Origin: a virus
Taxonomy: Duplodnaviria > Heunggongvirae > Uroviricota > Caudoviricetes
Strand: one strand, 5' to 3'
IMG/VR virus record: IMGVR_UViG_2698536687_000001
Length of the DNA: 64,000 nt
Shown: piece by piece, positions 2,749 to 52,380 of the stretch
How the letters are laid out: each line of letters starts with the position of its first letter
Numbering within the stretch: position 1 is the stretch's first letter
Position numbers and translations under genes: made by a program
Notes under the pieces: model-generated
Databases searched by the model: none
What the model was told of the DNA's origin: nothing
What the model saw: only the letters and a program-made list of their open reading frames with translations

Positions 2749-3427
2749 CCGGTTGCTGTTCTTTTTGTCGGAAGTAGCTGTCTTCCAGTTTTTCAAAGAA
2801 TGCCCATGCCTGATCGGTTTCGAGCATTTTAGCGTGACGGGCAGCTCCTCGTTCTGTCCAGAGGATGAGAGAGCGCGCTTTGGGGGAGACTGGATTTTGT
2901 GAGTAGTTTAAAGCTACCCGCAAATTTTTCAGCTCATCGCCAATAACCTTGAAAAAGTGCTTCGCTTCAACAAAGCGTACTTTGTTCTCATGATGATTCT
3001 GGCGAATGCGAATCGCTTCTGTACCATACCCCTTAGCAAGAGTTTCGGTTGTTACGACACGCACTCCCTGCCACTCCAGAACGGGAATTTCATCCGGCTG
3101 ATTCTGAACAACCACCAGTTCCGATTCCTGAACTGAAGGTGCATAAATTTTTTCTGATTTAACGTTAGTTGCTTTCATTCTGTGTGCCTCCTTGCGTGCT
3201 TCGGCTGCGACGGTTGCGTAATTCAGATGACCCTGTTCGAGCAGGTATTCACGGATATCGGTTAGCAGAATGCGGTGAACCGCGTTTTTGTCCTTTCTCC
3301 GGTAAAGTTGTTTGGTGATCATGAAGTAGTTGGCAATAACGCCAGGTATATCCCTGGTACTGATACAGGCAGTGTGCTGTTCAATTGCCTCGATCATCTC
3401 TTCACGGGTAACTAACGATGTTCTCAT
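2749..3427 (-). CDS. Antirepressor-like protein, copy A, N-terminal 226 aa only; 3-prime part lost in gap
   Basis: ORF runs into the N-run; first 133 aa identical to copy B (4145-5257), central segment diverged. Confidence 0.6.
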
Positions 3428-3645
3428 AGTCCCTCCTGAGCAGAAGCGTTAACAGGGAGGCACCAGTAACTGAGAGAATTGCGTGAATCAGTGGAAAAAC
3501 GGGCAGAGAAAATACATGGGGCGTCAGGAAGCTGAGAACGGGCCTCATCTTCTGTCGGTGCAATAACGAAATGATAGTGACGTTTTTGGCAGGAGTAAAA
3601 GCGCCAGATAAATTCAGGATGAATTGGGGTAGGGACAGTAGCCAT
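3424..3645 (-). CDS. Icd-like small protein (host cell division inhibitor family), 73 aa, copy A
   Basis: 73-aa ORF with RBS AAGGAGG, overlapping start of downstream ant-like gene by 4 nt; three paralogs in window each upstream of an ant-like gene; family assignment from memory. Confidence 0.55.
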   Translation of the reverse strand: MATVPTPIHPEFIWRFYSCQKRHYHFVIAPTEDEARSQLPDAPCIFSARFSTDSRNSLSYWCLPVNASAQEGL

Positions 3646-3830
3646 AATGGCAGCCTCCTTTGACTAAGTTAAGGAGCTACCGCGTGAGGTCTCAATCTCA
3701 ATGGCGGTAGCACTGACTGGGTTGAGACTACCGGCGTCAAAGGGAACCGGCCTGCCTTTCGGCAGCCCAGCCAGCACTACCATTGATTTCGGAGCTAAAC
3801 GCTACGTATGGCTGTGCGATGGCATGACAC

Positions 3831-3975
3831 AAAAAAAGACGCTTTCGGCGTCTGTGTCGCCTTTGACATTATCCGGGGTCTCAATCCCGGCACCCGTTTT
3901 AATGAGGTGCCTGATAAGCATAAACCGAAAATGCCTCAAGGCGCAAGAGGTCAGGTTCAATGTAGCATCGGTAGT
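3831..3975 (-). ncRNA. Candidate C4-like antisense RNA (immI-type), copy A
   Basis: Lies between operator 3985-4001 and an intrinsic terminator (minus-strand hairpin AGACGC-CGAAA-GCGUCU at 3838-3853 followed by U7); contains hairpin CCGGG-AUUGAGAC-CCCGG whose loop is complementary to GUCUCAA at plus 3721-3728 in the icd leader. Confidence 0.4.
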
Positions 3976-3984
3976 TAAAAAACA

Positions 3985-4001
3985 CAATTTATTAGAGCAA
4001 G
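3985..4001 (-). promoter_or_regulatory. C1 operator-like 17-mer upstream of immI-like cassette A
   Basis: CAATTTATTAGAGCAAG, 2 mismatches to reverse-complement consensus. Confidence 0.6.
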
Positions 4002-4144
4002 TTTTTACTCATTAAGCCATGCCAGAGCTTCATCAACCTGCGCTTCGTCTTCGGCGCTAAGCACTTCATCCTGGGGAACATAATCCGCCAGCATAGCGAA
4101 ACCGCGCAATAAATTATGCCCGGCATCAACCGGGCATTCTTCCA

Positions 4145-5257
4145 TTATTCAGCCGCCACCGGTTTTAACAAGCCAGCATCGAGCAGTTTACGCGTCAACC
4201 ACTGCTGGCCTTTACCCGTTAATTGAGGCGTCAACCGTATCTGGTAGCCATCTTCATCATCCAGCACCACTTCTTTCACCGTGAAATACCCCGCGTTGAT
4301 GTACTGCTGGAACGGCACATTTTTACGTCCACCGGACGCTATCAGGATGCCGTTCTCCCGTAACCAGGCAAACAGCGCGTTTTGCTTAAGTCCAACAACC
4401 TTTGCAAAATTCCCAATCAGGATCCCTTTAGCTACTGATACCCGGTCGGCAAAATCGACTTTAGGAGCGGCGGCCACCAGCTGCTGATTTAGCTGGTGGG
4501 CTTTCTGTTCCAGAAGCTGCTTTTGTTCAGCCAGTTCGGCAGCCAGGCGCAGAGCTTCTGGAAGCGTCTGGGGGATTGCAACCGGTTGCTGTTCTTTTTG
4601 CCGGAAGTAGCTGTCTTCCAGTTTTTCAAAGAATGCCCATGCTTCATTTGTGTCCACGATCTTAGACATGCGTGCAGCGCCGCGCTCTGTCCAGAGTGTA
4701 AGGCTTCTGGCGTTCTTACCAACAGAGTAACTTCCGGTTACTCTGTTCTTAAATTCTCTTAATTTTAAACCAGTTAGAAGAAAGTAATGCTTACCTTCTT
4801 CAAAGCGGTCAAGGTTGCGAGACAAATTGTTGCGAATATTGGCTTCATCGACCCCATACCCTCTAGCAAGAGTTTCGGTTGTCACGACACGTACTCCCTG
4901 CCATTCCAGAACGGGAATTTCATCCGGCTGATTCTGAACAACCACCAGTTCCGATTCCTGAACTGAAGGTGCATAAATTTTTTCTGATTTAACGTTAGTT
5001 GCTTTCATTCTGTGTGCCTCCTTGCGTGCTTCGGCTGCGACGGTTGCGTAATTCAGATGACCCTGTTCGAGCAGGTATTCACGGATATCGGTTAGCAGAA
5101 TGCGGTGAACCGCGTTTTTGTCCTTTCTCCGGTAAAGTTGTTTGGTGATCATGAAGTAGTTGGCAATAACGCCCGGTATATCCCTGGTACTGATACAGGC
5201 AGTGTGCTGTTCAATTGCCTCGATCATCTCTTCACGGGTGACTAATGACGTTCTCAT
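4145..5257 (-). CDS. Antirepressor-like protein, copy B, 370 aa (N-terminal regulatory domain plus C-terminal KilAC/ANT-like domain)
   Basis: C-terminal segment [18 protein letters not shown]...PKVDFADRV...GYFTVKEV resembles phage antirepressor KilAC domain from memory; paralogs at 2749-3427, 49829-50629, 50794-51831. Confidence 0.65.
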
Positions 5258-5475
5258 AGTCCCTCCTGAGCAGAAGCGTTAACAGGGAGGCACCAGTAAC
5301 TGAGAGAATTGCGCGAATCGGTAGAAAAGCGGGCAGAGAAAATACAGGGAGCATCCGGAAGCTGAGAACGTGCCTCATCTTCTGTCGGTGCAATAACGAA
5401 GTGATAGTGACGTTTTTGGCAGGAGTAAAAGCGCCAGATAAATTCAGGATGAGCAGGGGTAGGGATAGTAGCCAC
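5254..5475 (-). CDS. Icd-like small protein, 73 aa, copy B
   Basis: Differs from copy A at 2 residues; same operon arrangement. Confidence 0.55.
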   Translation of the reverse strand: MATIPTPAHPEFIWRFYSCQKRHYHFVIAPTEDEARSQLPDAPCIFSARFSTDSRNSLSYWCLPVNASAQEGL

Positions 5476-5660
5476 AATGGCAGCCTCCTTTTGCTAATTT
5501 AAGGAGCTACCGCGTGAGGTCTCAATCTCAATGGCGGTAGCACTGACTGGGTTGAGACTACCGGCGCAAAAGGGAACCGGCCTGCCTTTCGGCAGCCCAG
5601 CCAGCACTACCATTGATCTCTGAGCTAAACGCTACGTATGGCTGTGCGATGGCATGACAC

Positions 5661-5805
5661 AAAAAAAGACGCTTTTGGCGTCTGTGTCGCCTTTTGCATT
5701 ATCCGGGGTCTCAATCCCGGCACCCGTTTTACTGAGGTGCCTGATAAGCATAAACCGAAAATGCCTCAAGGCGCAAGAGGTCAGGTTCAATGTAACATCG
5801 GTAGT
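5661..5805 (-). ncRNA. Candidate C4-like antisense RNA, copy B
   Basis: Same architecture as copy A: operator 5815-5831, CCGGGAUUGAGACCCCGG hairpin (plus 5703-5720), terminator hairpin 5668-5682 plus U-run. Confidence 0.4.
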
Positions 5806-5814
5806 TAAAAAACA

Positions 5815-5831
5815 CAATTTATTAGAGCAAA
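5815..5831 (-). promoter_or_regulatory. C1 operator-like 17-mer upstream of immI-like cassette B
   Basis: CAATTTATTAGAGCAAA, 2 mismatches. Confidence 0.6.
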
Positions 5832-5834
5832 TAT

Positions 5835-7319
5835 TCATTCATTAAGCCATGCCAGAGCTTCATCAACCTGCGCTTCGTCTTCGACGCTAAGCACTTCGTC
5901 CTGGGGAACATAATCCGCCAGCATAGCGAAACAATATGTATCCCAATGGTCTGGTGAGTGCAGGTTGAGTTTTTTCTTCATATCCTCCTTACTCATCACC
6001 TTCCATTGACCTGCGGAGTTAATCCCTACAGGGATTTTCGACGCTTCCTCAATAGTTTCATTACCCTTATCCAGTCTCATACGACCAGATTTTACGGCCT
6101 CTGCGGCTTGAACGTTGGCATAAGCACGTTTATCAAAGTACAGGCTCTTATCTTCACGGCTATGCATCTTTTTACCCCAGCGTATACGCTGTACGGTAAT
6201 ACCATAATACTCGTACATCAGATCCGCCGTTGCTTTACCCAGGCCATCGCCGTCTATCGCTATGGTGATATTGGGGAATCGCTCAGGATTACATTCTGCG
6301 AAAATTTTGGCGGCAAGCTGCGTTTCTGTAACGTCTGTGTATTCCAGCATTCGATAGTTGATTACACGGCGTTTATTTCGCTGGCCGGACACCATCATGA
6401 TATTGATAACGGACTTATCCCGTCCCGTACCACCAGCAACGTCCACACATGCAAGCCAGCCCCATCCTTTTGCAATCTTGACTTTCCGCCGCGTTGCACG
6501 TTCAACCTCATCACGTCCAAGAAGGAAGCCATCCTGTGATTTAGGGAATAGGCCGCGTACCTTAATCATGTACATAGGGTTATCACGCCCGCCGTACTCC
6601 GCCAGCTTCATTTTGATAAATGCTGGCGTTACCAACGGTGATTCCTCACTGTTAAGCGTGATCGCCGTATAAACGCCATCAGGGTTACCAGGACGCTTGG
6701 CCAGTTTATGGTGTGTATCGTAGAAATAGCCGCTTGGGCGTGTAGGCTGTGACAGCAATAAGATGCGGTTATCCTGTCCGGTAAGAGCACCGGTGATGAT
6801 ACCGAAAGCTCTATCACTGACACCGGAGGCTTCATCGATAATATACAGAAGATGATCTGCGTGTTCACCGGCGAGAGCTTCTTCACTTCCCAGACGAAAG
6901 CCCTTCGGTACTACAGTCCATACACCTTTACCAGTAACCTCATAGAAAGCGGTTTCTGTCAGAACAAAATAATCAGCAAGCCATGGAAAACGGCTGGTGG
7001 CAGTAGCCCAGTTTATCTTGATGTACTTGAATATACCGGTCATTACCTGCTGAATTTTGTTCGCAACGATAATGGCTCGGGCACCGGGATACATGATTAT
7101 GAACAACATGATCATGATAGAAGTCATGTCTGATTTCCCGGTACCGTGACCAGACGAAACAGATGTCTTGCTACCCTGTTCCTGCACAGACTCAATAATC
7201 AGATCCTGCTGCCAGGTAGGTGTTTTGCCGAACAAAACATCAGCGGCCGCAATCCAGTCATAACGATATAGCGCCACCAGCTCGCGCCAACGTGGATCCG
7301 TTACGCAACTTCTGGCCAT
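5835..7319 (-). CDS. pacB: Terminase large subunit PacB-like, 494 aa
   Basis: 494-aa ORF whose start overlaps pacA stop by 1 nt (ATGA); position downstream of pac-containing pacA; size matches P1 PacB as recalled. Confidence 0.8.
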
Positions 7320-8512
7320 TAATCATCATCCCCGTATAGCTTGCGGGTAACTTCTTCGTCTTCCTCCTCGTCTTCGTCCAGGTCTTGTTCCAGCCATGGG
7401 TCGTTTGATACACCTTCAGTATCAACATCTCCATAACCGCCTGTATCAACGATATCGGCGATTTCTTCCCTACGCTGCTCAATCCACAATGCGGCATCGG
7501 CGCGGCGGTTGGCGGCCCGTTCTCGCGCAACTTTGTCCAGATCTTCAAGAGAAGGGCCACCAACGGCTGTTTGCCTTTCCTCATCATCGGTATTGGTCTT
7601 AGGAGCACGCAGATCGGCTTTGATTTGCTCCAGCATCAGGGGCGGCACTTTCCCGCCATGCGCCTCGATGAATTCAGCTGCTTCCAGCACTGACCAGTTA
7701 TTTTCACGCTTTCGTTCGTATGCCAGCTTAACAATGCCAGCTTGCCCCATAGATAAAGCGTGCTTTTCCGCCTCCCGGCTTTCTTTTCGATAGTTATTCC
7801 GGATGCTGTAAATGGTGTTGATCAGGCTGCTTATCTGCGCGGAACAGCTGTTTAGCATGCTCGCGATACGGTATTCAGGCGGAGTACCTTCATCATCGTC
7901 TTTTTGCTGATCGCGCATTTCCTGCACCAGGCGAATACACGTATCCCTGGCGTTCTCCAGCATAAGGAGATGAGAAAGAGACTTTTCCAGAAGAGTGGTT
8001 TCCAGAACATCGGCCCCGGACCGACGCAACATAGCGCGCGCGGCCTTCCGCGCTTCAACGTTATCTATCAGGTAATCGCCAGCTTCGAATTCAAAGCGTT
8101 CACCATCATCATCCAGGGTGTCGCGTTCCAGGCGATCACGTAAGGTCCGGTGGGCGCGGGTGATCACGTCATGATCATCAGAACGATCATTTATGCGCTT
8201 ATTTTGGCGCTTCGCATTCTCGACTGCGGCACTGACAACGGCATTAACCCTTTGTTTTTCCGCTATTTCAGCCGCAATGTGATCACCTGCATGTTGATCA
8301 TTAGAGTGATCAATGATCATGCTTTTTAGTGGCTTCCTGACTGGCTTATTTGGCTTGCGGCTGTCCGCTGTCCTGGTGTCTTCTTTGAAGGCACGGAGAT
8401 AACGACGTGCAGTATTAGGGTTAAGATTAAACTCGGCGGCATACTGTGCGATGGTGTAACCACCATCTCGCGCCAGGCGAGCAAAATTCTTCTTGTGATC
8501 GTCCCAGGTCAC
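7319..8512 (-). CDS. pacA: Terminase small subunit/pacase PacA-like, 397 aa
   Basis: 397-aa ORF containing the clustered TGATCA hexamers of a pac site in its 5-prime part. Confidence 0.8.
8161..8319. other. pac: pac packaging site (two clusters of Dam-methylatable TGATCA hexamers)
   Basis: TGATCA at 8161, 8172 and CGATCA at 8185 on one side; TGATCA at 8280, 8295, 8307, 8314 on the other; 3+4 arrangement about 160 bp apart inside pacA as described for P1. Confidence 0.8.
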
Positions 8513-50793: not shown

Positions 50794-51831
50794 TTAACCT
50801 ATTGCTACTGGTTTTAACAAACCAGCATCAAGTAGCTTGCGAGTTAACCACTGCTGGCCTTTACCCGTTAATTGGGGCGTCAGCCGTATCTGGTAGCCAT
50901 TTTCATCATCCAGCACCACTTCTTTCACCGTGAAATACCCGGCGTTAATGTACTGCTGGCGCGGTACGTTTTTGCGCGCACCAAAAGCCATGAGAATGCC
51001 GTTCTGGCGCAACCATGAGAAAAGGGCGTTTTGCTTAAGTCCAACGACCTTTGCAAAGTTACCGATCAGGATTCCATTAGCCACTGATACCCGGTCGGCA
51101 AAATCGACTTTAGGTGCTGCGGCCACCAGCTGTTGTTCCAGATGCATTTTCTGTTCTGCCAACTCGGCAGCCAGGCGTAGGGCTTCTGGTAATGTTTGGG
51201 GGATCGATGGGGTAGGGGAGTTTGCCTGCTGCAATTCTTCCAGTTTGTCGATCAGCGAACGGCGGACAGCTTTTGATTCGCGCGCGGCGACTCGCAGGGC
51301 TTGTTTGTAGGTCATGGTTATGACAAGCATTGATGTTTTGTTCATTTTTTCCACTACACTTTTTGTGTAGTGCTCACCATCAAGCTCATCGAGTATTTTT
51401 TCGATGAATTTGTTGTTCCGAACCTCTGGTTCCCCACATAACTTACGCGCTTCATTGACCATCTTTAACAGTGTCTGGCTGTCGATTGTGTCTCCAGTGT
51501 TGGAGATAACATTCACAGTTGGTGATGGCGTAGCTAAAGCAACAGGTGCTGGTTTTTCAACATTCAAATTATTACCGGTCATTCTGCGCGCCTCCTTTCT
51601 CATTTCTGCTGCCACCGTTGCGTAACGTAGACGTCCTTGTTCAATCAAATAATCCCTGATCTCGGCTATCAGTAGCCTGTTGATCACAGCCTTATCTGTT
51701 CGGGTATAAAAACGCCTGGTTATCATGAAATAGTTGGCAATTGCGCCGGGGATCTCCCGTGTCGGCATACAGGCAGTATGCAGGGCGATCGCTTCGGCTA
51801 TGTCATTACGGGTGACGAGAGGTTTTTTCAT
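50794..51831 (-). CDS. Antirepressor Ant-like protein, 345 aa
   Basis: KilAC/ANT-type C-terminus nearly identical to copy B; preceded by icd-like ORF and c4-like region. Confidence 0.65.
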   Translation of the reverse strand: MKKPLVTRNDIAEAIALHTACMPTREIPGAIANYFMITRRFYTRTDKAVINRLLIAEIRDYLIEQGRLRYATVAAEMRKEARRMTGNNLNVEKPAPVALATPSPTVNVISNTGDTIDSQTLLKMVNEARKLCGEPEVRNNKFIEKILDELDGEHYTKSVVEKMNKTSMLVITMTYKQALRVAARESKAVRRSLIDKLEELQQANSPTPSIPQTLPEALRLAAELAEQKMHLEQQLVAAAPKVDFADRVSVANGILIGNFAKVVGLKQNALFSWLRQNGILMAFGARKNVPRQQYINAGYFTVKEVVLDDENGYQIRLTPQLTGKGQQWLTRKLLDAGLLKPVAIG

Positions 51832-52049
51832 AAAACCTCCTGAACGTCGGCAGAGAAGGGGAGGTTCCAGTAACTAAGTGAATTGCGCGAGTTAGTTGAA
51901 AAACGGGCAGTAAAAATGCAGGGGCCATCAGGCAATTGAGAGCGTGCTTCGTCTTCAGTTGCTGCGATAACGAAGTGATAGTGGTGTTTTTTACAGGAAT
52001 AGAAACGCCAGATGAATTCTTGGCGTGCGCAAGGATTGGCATTAACCAT
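51828..52049 (-). CDS. Icd-like small protein, 73 aa, copy C
   Basis: Paralog of 3424-3645 (shared EFIWRFYSC...HYHFVIA...TEDEARSQLPD); overlaps ant start by 4 nt. Confidence 0.55.
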   Translation of the reverse strand: MVNANPCARQEFIWRFYSCKKHHYHFVIAATEDEARSQLPDGPCIFTARFSTNSRNSLSYWNLPFSADVQEVL

Positions 52050-52206
52050 AGTTACGGCCTCACAATCAGGTTTAACAACCTGCTACCCGCTGCTAAACAG
52101 GTGGCAGGACGTGACGGGGTTAGCAGACTGGCGATTGTGAAACCAGCAGGCCGAAGCCTCCCCATCACGCCCCACCATAATTTGGGCGTAACGCGGTTTT
52201 ACGGAC

Positions 52207-52355
52207 ACAAAAATACCGCAATATCGGATATCTGCGGCTGTCCGCACAATCATTCAGGCTGCTAAACCCGGTCGCAGAATTTGCTACGACGGCGGAACTA
52301 TAAGCCTGAACGATTAAAAGGTCAATATGATGCGAAAAGATAGCATTCGTGACTT
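52207..52355 (-). ncRNA. Candidate C4-like antisense RNA, copy C
   Basis: Between operator 52364-52380 and a hairpin plus U-run (plus 52207-52237); repeated GUUUAGCAGC motif on the minus-strand RNA. Confidence 0.3.
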
Positions 52356-52363
52356 AAAAATAC

Positions 52364-52380
52364 AAATTTATTAGAGCAGA
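52364..52380 (-). promoter_or_regulatory. C1 operator-like site upstream of immI-like cassette C
   Basis: AAATTTATTAGAGCAGA, 2 mismatches. Confidence 0.6.

Follow-up and report, generated by a model that had tools for sequence, protein, structure and literature searches.

In phages P1 and P7, RNase P processes C4, an antisense RNA of ~77 nucleotides (nt), from the transcript of the immI operon, and its pairing with the a2 and b2 sites blocks translation of icd. The block abolishes expression of the coupled antirepressor gene ant and causes premature termination; Ant otherwise inactivates the C1 repressor, and the two phages are heteroimmune because their a and b elements differ. This processing and control were reportedly worked out by Citron and Schuster in 1990/1992 and by Hartmann et al. 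in 1995, and Biere, Citron and Schuster are said to have found in 1992 that translational repression of P1 icd leads to Rho-dependent termination before ant. Here we describe three cassettes of the immI type, termed A, B and C, in a 64,000-nt stretch (the window) of the Caudoviricetes record IMGVR_UViG_2698536687_000001, together with their C4 RNAs and the leader that precedes each C4.

In the P1 record (NC_005856) the order is operator (Op), a1, b1, c4, a2, b2 and icd; a2 directly follows c4, b2 sits at the icd ribosome-binding site (RBS), and a1 and b1 are labeled as putative targets only. The P7 immI operon (AF503408) runs Op(c4), a1 b1, c4, a2 b2, icd and ant1/2. The CI RNA of P4 (seqA, seqB and seqC) resembles C4 in being a processed RNA whose own transcript carries complementary sites on either side of it. 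It differs from the C4 cassettes in that it terminates transcription of replication genes and is accompanied by neither icd nor ant.

A further relative is the isrK-orf45-anrP locus of the Salmonella prophage Gifsy-1 (Hershko-Shalev et al. 2016; RF01394), where some transcripts stop at the IsrK terminator and read-through yields a translationally silent mRNA (PMC4825925). The short form of IsrK binds Hfq and base-pairs in trans with a region farther down its own read-through transcript, as proven by compensatory mutations, and thereby switches on translation of orf45-anrP; the read-through transcript is also the source of STnc1160, a stable processed RNA complementary to IsrK, and orf45 is conserved in nucleotide sequence but not in amino-acid sequence (PMC4825925). 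The authors compare the locus with P4 CI, not with P1 C4 (PMC4825925), and of the papers covered by our literature search only two mention both IsrK and C4, neither drawing a mechanistic link between them.

The window belongs to a P1/P7-type (Punavirus) phage-plasmid; its backbone is 97-98% identical to P1, RCS47 and JL22, and it carries three immI-type antirepressor cassettes. Cassettes A and B stand in tandem between pacB and c1; the canonical immI locus, at 52 kb, holds cassette C. Each is arranged on the minus strand as C1 operator, a1/b1 leader, C4, a2, b2 over the icd RBS, icd and ant, and thus resembles P1 immI in the order of its parts, RNA fold, two-element logic, position of b2 over the icd RBS, coupling of icd to ant and upstream C1 operator. 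The proposal of an initial annotation, made from the sequence, that these are P1-immI-like cassettes under C4-type antisense control was sound. With roles assigned by homology to P1 and P7, C4 would very probably keep Ant off in all three cassettes through pairing of a' and b' with a2 and b2. C4 would be cut from the same transcript that carries its targets, and its pairing would block translation of icd and so keep the coupled Ant off; C1 would then stay active and lysogeny be maintained.

Rfam covariance models run over the whole window gave six matches at or above the curated gathering scores (45 bits for C4, RF01695; 50 bits for isrK, RF01394; 46.7 bits for c4-a1b1, RF03163), all on the minus strand. 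The Infernal search with the C4 model, which the initial annotation had proposed as a check, was positive at all three loci, and each match spans model positions 1-87 of 87 with E values of ~1e-11 to 1e-13:

3700-3787, minus strand: C4 RNA of cassette A (RF01695, 75.4 bits, E 6.6e-13)
3736-3743, minus strand: b' of A, CCUUUGAC, in the loop of C4 hairpin 2
3722-3728, minus strand: a' of A, GUCUCAA, in the unpaired junction of C4
5530-5617, minus strand: C4 RNA of cassette B (RF01695, 75.0 bits)
5566-5573, minus strand: b' of B, CCUUUUGC, in C4 of cassette B
5552-5558, minus strand: a' of B, GUCUCAA, in C4 of cassette B
52097-52182, minus strand: C4 RNA of cassette C (RF01695, 69.6 bits)
52133-52139, minus strand: b' of C, CACAAUC, in C4 of cassette C
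52120-52126, minus strand: a' of C, CUGCUAA, in C4 of cassette C

All three have the C4 structure, a long closing stem around two hairpins with b' in the second loop and a' in a single-stranded junction. The minimum free energy (MFE) of C4-A is -46.5 kcal/mol (z -5.3; C4-B, z -5.6; range over the three, -5.1 to -5.6), and the MFE folds leave b' and a' unpaired in every cassette.

Two observations concern the same stretches. RefSeq/PGAP annotates in relatives a 39-amino-acid (aa) 'ash family protein' open reading frame (ORF) exactly over the C4 gene (L076 4519-4638 and L079 4569-4688; window equivalents 3664-3783 and 5494-5613, minus strand); it appears to be a translation of the C4 RNA gene, and NCBIfam gave no match at E <= 0.01 for the 39-aa ORF that overlaps C4 in the window. 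Weak sub-threshold Rfam matches to mir-1231 and small SRP at 52098-52180 and 52049-52148 overlap C4-C and are chance matches to a long GC-rich hairpin.

Downstream of each C4 lie the target sites, with b2 overlapping the Shine-Dalgarno (SD) sequence of icd, followed by icd and ant:

3689-3695, minus strand: a2 of A, UUGAGAC, directly 3' of C4, as a2 is annotated in P1
3657-3664, minus strand: b2 of A, GUCAAAGG, overlapping the icd SD AAGGAGG (3654-3660), analogous to P1 b2
3424-3645, minus strand: icd A, 73 aa, ATG start (NF033153 Icd-like, 49.8 bits); its stop overlaps the ant start (ATGA)
2749-3427, minus strand: 5' two thirds of ant A (PF10543 ORF6N), the 3' part being masked by a run of N
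5519-5525, minus strand: a2 of B, UUGAGAC
5487-5494, minus strand: b2 of B, GCAAAAGG, overlapping the SD at 5484-5490
5254-5475, minus strand: icd B, 73 aa, GTG start (NF033153)
4145-5257, minus strand: ant B, 370 aa (PF10543 ORF6N and PF03374 ANT/KilAC)
52090-52097, minus strand: a2 of C, from the P1/P7 annotation
52061-52067, minus strand: b2 of C, overlapping the SD GUGAGG (52058-52063), from the P1/P7 annotation
51828-52049, minus strand: icd C (NF033153)
50794-51831, minus strand: ant1/2 of C (ANT/KilAC domain)

The set that defines an immI operon (a C1 operator, icd and a coupled antirepressor) is present, icd and ant overlapping by ATGA. NCBIfam NF033153 matches all three Icd ORFs, and Pfam matches none of them. 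The GTG start of icd B (5473-5475, versus 3643-3645 for the start codon of A) is common among natural alleles, occurring in 13 of 47 distinct regions. The N-terminal 135 aa of ant A are nearly identical to those of ant B, and the middle domain of ant A is divergent. In the window, icd A lies ~194 nt nearer to c1 than its counterpart in RCS47 does; ant A may be shorter than its relatives, or else the length of the run of N is not true to scale. Predicted duplex energies are strongest for cognate pairs (-20 to -23 kcal/mol), intermediate for A with B (~-16 kcal/mol) because these share the a element, and weaker for the other combinations.

Upstream of each C4 lies a leader with a second copy of the two target elements:

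3832-3910, minus strand: a1/b1 leader of cassette A (isrK RF01394, 60.2 bits, full model)
3873-3890, minus strand: hairpin CCGGG-AUUGAGAC-CCCGG of A, displaying a1 in its loop
3878-3884, minus strand: a1 of A, UUGAGAC, in the loop of the leader hairpin and complementary to GUCUCAA at 3722-3728
3860-3867, minus strand: b1 of A, GUCAAAGG, single-stranded
3837-3853, minus strand: intrinsic terminator in the leader of A (terminator scan)
5662-5740, minus strand: a1/b1 leader of cassette B (isrK RF01394, 58.2 bits)
5703-5720, minus strand: the same hairpin in B, displaying a1 in its loop
5708-5714, minus strand: a1 of B, in the leader of cassette B
5690-5697, minus strand: b1 of B, GCAAAAGG, in the leader of cassette B
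5667-5683, minus strand: intrinsic terminator in the leader of B (terminator scan)
52209-52303, minus strand: a1/b1 leader of cassette C (c4-a1b1 RF03163, 55.5 bits at 52251-52303)
52259-52266, minus strand: a1 of C, UUUAGCAG, in the leader of cassette C
52245-52251, minus strand: b1 of C, GAUUGUG, in the leader of cassette C

A simple scan found no terminator in the leader of cassette C. The leaders of A and B pass the isrK threshold and fall below that of c4-a1b1 (22.3 bits, E 0.002), which only C exceeds, and they are filed under isrK for this reason; conversely, the full-length isrK model scores 43.7 bits on the leader of C, below its threshold. Since A and B pass isrK and weakly match c4-a1b1, and C does the converse, the two Rfam families appear to describe one element, IsrK being equal to the a1/b1 leader. 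The likeness to Gifsy-1 extends over the full isrK model, terminator included, and to the order of the parts: a leader, then a region of stable RNA complementary to it, then a small ORF coupled to an antirepressor. Unlike A and B, the Gifsy-1 locus belongs to a lambdoid prophage; there the small ORF orf45 and the complementary RNA region overlap, and the locus acts through AntQ-mediated antitermination. By analogy with IsrK, the short terminated leader RNA of A and B may act as a target mimic that pairs with C4 and counteracts it.

Cassette C is the P7 operon: its operator, leader, 77-nt c4 core and targets are all identical to those of P7, as is the icd start, the flanks match (the Upf50.5 lipoprotein upstream; kilA and then repL downstream of ant on the minus strand) and the RNA has no notable difference. 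The distinct specificity that the initial annotation had suggested for this copy is thus exactly that of P7 c4. Cassettes A and B depart further from P1, which has UUGACAG as its a element and GUUAGUG as its b element, as against UUGAGAC with GUCAAAGG in A and UUGAGAC with GCAAAAGG in B. They are found between pacB and c1 and not at the sim-kilA locus, have isrK-type leaders that contain a strong intrinsic terminator and encode an Ant with an ORF6N middle domain. RCS47-like phage-plasmids (RCS47, FO818745; JL22; pTZ20_1P) have an insertion of like position and gene content between pacB and c1, published as 'two short hypothetical orfs and an antirepressor' (Venturini et al. 2019, PMC6906374); the RCS47 record annotates 'ant' there and no RNA. 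Each of these elements has one such cassette, whereas here two stand in tandem and differ in their b alleles. The regulatory region of cassette A matches that of RCS47 at every position over 267 nt (100% identity), the allele of cassette B occurs at >=99% identity in 74 PLSDB plasmid records (nearly always once per record), and Rfam-detectable members of the A/B class are present in hundreds of public plasmids.

The pairing of the sites is also seen in their covariation. A and B have the a element in common (UUGAGAC/GUCUCAA) and differ in b (GUCAAAGG/CCUUUGAC in A, GCAAAAGG/CCUUUUGC in B); from operator to icd they have few differences, among them UC to CA in b1, GA to UG in b' and UC to CA in b2, and these dinucleotide changes are, as predicted pairings, mutually compensating. 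A degenerate C4 pattern in which b' and a' were left free recovered 72 IMG/VR contigs, whose cassettes carry two a alleles (UUGAGAC and UUGGAAC) and two b alleles in all four combinations. All six sites (a1/a'/a2 and b1/b'/b2) are concordant in 71 of the 72. Across 33 distinct cassettes, C4 pairs with its target in 100% of cells and with the leader in 99.8%, with four compensated pairs in each case; the observed pairing was reached in 0 of 500 shuffles, and slid controls gave 28-57%. The sites are interleaved (a1-b1-b'-a'-a2-b2), so that single crossovers between alleles would make mismatches, and the occurrence of all four matched haplotypes at the pacB-proximal position argues for selection on pairing, including that of a1/b1. 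The same distribution led us to reject the idea that allele type is set by genome position.

The sole discordant cassette (L045 5021-5305; IMG/VR 2778261639_000014) has UUGAGAC at a1 and the GGAAC type at a' and a2; its mismatch at a1 only suggests that a1 is under weaker constraint than a2. The Stx2 phage F039 is built in the same way but with a third specificity, and its record already annotates isrK and C4 side by side. Motif statistics were rejected as main evidence, bare triplets not being rare enough: some 7-mer triplet arose in 6% of shuffles and some 8-mer triplet in 0.5%. It is the covariance-model matches and the covariation that place the finding beyond chance.

The window also contains the C1 operators expected of immI operons. 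Scanning with the P1 operator consensus (ATTGCTCTAATAAATTT) revealed 15 C1-operator-like sites compared to 0.44 expected by chance, among them one ahead of each leader. Cassette C alone has a promoter that could be placed in full, and the features concerned are:

3985-4001, minus strand: C1 operator of cassette A, CTTGCTCTAATAAATTG, two mismatches to the consensus, equivalent in position to P1 Op51/Oc4
5815-5831, minus strand: C1 operator of cassette B, two mismatches to the consensus
52364-52380, minus strand: C1 operator of cassette C, two mismatches to the consensus, identical to P7 Op(c4)
52297-52325, minus strand: promoter TTGACC-17-TATAGT of cassette C, equivalent to P1 P1c4 (formerly P51b) and identical to the mapped P1 promoter

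The best promoter candidates in A and B score 7/12; these are TTGTGT-17-TACATT, homologous to P1 P2c4, and TTGCGC-18-TATGCT, whose position fits the isrK 5' end.

The surroundings of the tandem are as follows:

7319-8512, minus strand: pacA
5835-7319, minus strand: pacB, with the operator of B directly past its stop
4116-4137, minus strand: terminator-like hairpin downstream of ant B, dividing the tandem into two transcription units
4005-4102, minus strand: duplicated 3' end of pacB (98 nt) heading unit A, from alignment of the two units, with the new joint at 4102/4103
1622-2473, convergent with cassette A: c1, with coi beside it

The joint also creates a 46-aa chimeric ORF at 4005-4145 (minus strand) from the ant B stop, the terminator hairpin and the duplicated pacB C-terminus, which is probably meaningless. 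A pacB fragment of its own and the divergent middle domain of its ant indicate that unit A probably came from another phage by illegitimate recombination and not by recent self-duplication. A second plasmid with two cassettes of the isrK type is pP136-6 (NZ_CP080229.1; L079 4400-6000, L076), which has one in the pacB-proximal position and one at the canonical immI locus upstream of kilA-repL, with a common b allele and different a alleles.

Two sets of candidate tandems were rejected. Twenty plasmids covering 82% of the junction are deletion derivatives, and plasmid H109, which matches in two places, has its second cassette at the canonical immI locus. The deletion derivatives (L078 2500-3035, NZ_CP080123.1, and ~19 further plasmids) have the 3' ~450 nt of ant fused to the pacB 3' end, having lost the operator, leader, C4, icd and the 5' half of ant. 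Elsewhere in the window, at 8000-32000, about one third is not covered by P1, RCS47 or JL22 but by phage vB_EcoM-673R5, whose features in that part include HsdR and restriction subunit S; this resembles type I restriction-modification cargo.

Three other explanations were weighed. The initial annotation had cast the upstream hairpin RNA (3831-3975) as the C4-like repressor, with GUCUCAA in the icd leader as its target and a downstream UUGAGAC as competitor. Much of what it listed is there: the C1 operator-like sites at all three positions, the CCGGG...CCCGG hairpin of A and B with its loop UUGAGAC complementary to GUCUCAA, and the downstream icd-like ORFs (NF033153) and ant genes (PF03374). 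The complementarity is real and kept by covariation, and a short terminated RNA is plausible given the isrK match and the terminator. However, the C4 covariance model matches 3700-3787 and not the hairpin region, which is the a1/b1 leader; GUCUCAA is a' and sits in the unpaired junction of the C4 structure; the P1 record annotates the upstream sites as a1/b1 target copies, with c4 between them and a2/b2; and the short leader RNA of the homologue, IsrK, activates downstream translation instead of repressing it. The terminator said to end the non-coding stretch ahead of icd is present in A and B but does not end it: ~190 nt, including the whole C4 gene, intervene before icd. The same-sense repeat placed near the icd RBS exists at 3689-3695 but lies 29 nt upstream of the SD and is the a2 target. 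The b element (b', b1, b2), whose b2 copy covers the icd SD and which distinguishes A from B, had no place in that account and is left unaccounted for. An upstream hairpin repressor is accordingly hardly credible: the pairing was right, and the roles of repressor and target were inverted, the real interaction being that of a1 with a' between leader and C4. A P4-type control, in which the C4-like RNA, like P4 CI RNA at seqA and seqC, mainly causes premature transcription termination through a1/b1 and a2/b2 on the nascent transcript and a1/b1 pairing sets the amount of transcription past the leader terminator, has more in its favor. Over 140 nt, the C4 half of cassette A shares 75% identity with the P4 cI region, a strong intrinsic terminator follows right after a1/b1 in A and B, and the P4 analogy was raised by the IsrK authors (PMC4825925). 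Against this, b2 lies over the icd SD precisely as it does in P1, an arrangement that points to occlusion of translation as the primary step, and a co-expressed downstream RNA did not lower the IsrK effect (PMC4825925). We regard control mainly by termination as unlikely, although the two mechanisms are not exclusive, given that repression of P1 icd reportedly leads to Rho-dependent termination.

The tandem itself could be an assembly chimera of co-resident P1-like plasmids or a decaying duplicate, leaving one functional pacB-proximal cassette. Searched as a string or as a 301-nt query, the junction was absent from PLSDB, 5,426 complete E. coli genomes, GTDB species genomes, IMG/VR and JGI metagenomes; a 266-N run (2483-2748) interrupts ant A, and deletion derivatives of the pacB-c1 cassette exist in ~20 plasmids. 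Yet the 4102/4103 joint is a novel sequence with hardly any shared homology, of a sort that assemblers do not create; the regulatory region of each cassette is intact and matches a widespread functional allele completely or very nearly; unit A, with its own pacB 3' fragment and divergent ant middle domain, is not a recent copy error; and another plasmid also has two cassettes of this class with different specificities. A chimera or decaying duplicate therefore seems quite improbable. Several points do weigh against our preferred account of three C4-controlled cassettes with a counteracting leader. The tandem arrangement was seen in this window alone among the collections searched, and the N run masks the 3' end of ant A and hence the integrity of this effector gene. 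No sigma-70 promoter in A or B passes a standard or lenient scan, and for these two cassettes the RNA ends, RNase P processing and repression derive entirely from homology. The sampled class has only two alleles per element in close relatives, and thus few independent covariation events. Finally, a simple leader decoy is not what the IsrK authors propose, namely alternative cis structures plus pairing in trans (PMC4825925). Family membership, folds, site positions, compensatory covariation and gene content come straight from the sequence analysis, whereas processing, the action of C4 as a repressor in trans, the function of the leader and how far A and B cross-talk are inferred.

The C4 system described here is real and of a known kind, and the principle of C4 control is unchanged. 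Modestly new are the tandem of two heterospecific cassettes, the two-by-two allele system with six-site concordance and the apparent equivalence of IsrK and the a1/b1 leader. This third point joins two separate literatures, on the Salmonella small RNA IsrK and on the P1/P7 a1/b1 leader, and a target-mimic leader, if true, would give the a1/b1 sites a function. The analysis also gives annotators exact positions for three RNA genes and their leaders.

More tentatively, it is possible that the class uses a two-part combinatorial immunity code in which a and b alleles reassort, cassettes are stacked against heteroimmune relatives and the leader acts as an anti-antisense RNA that sets the induction threshold. 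Stacking would here combine a P7-type cassette with two isrK-type cassettes predicted to differ in b only, and the pair in pP136-6 would differ in a only. The specificity of C4 determines which related phages are able to induce, or to coexist with, a resident P1-like prophage. P1-like phage-plasmids often carry resistance genes in E. coli and Salmonella; a prophage that has three specificities should withstand induction by a larger number of its relatives.

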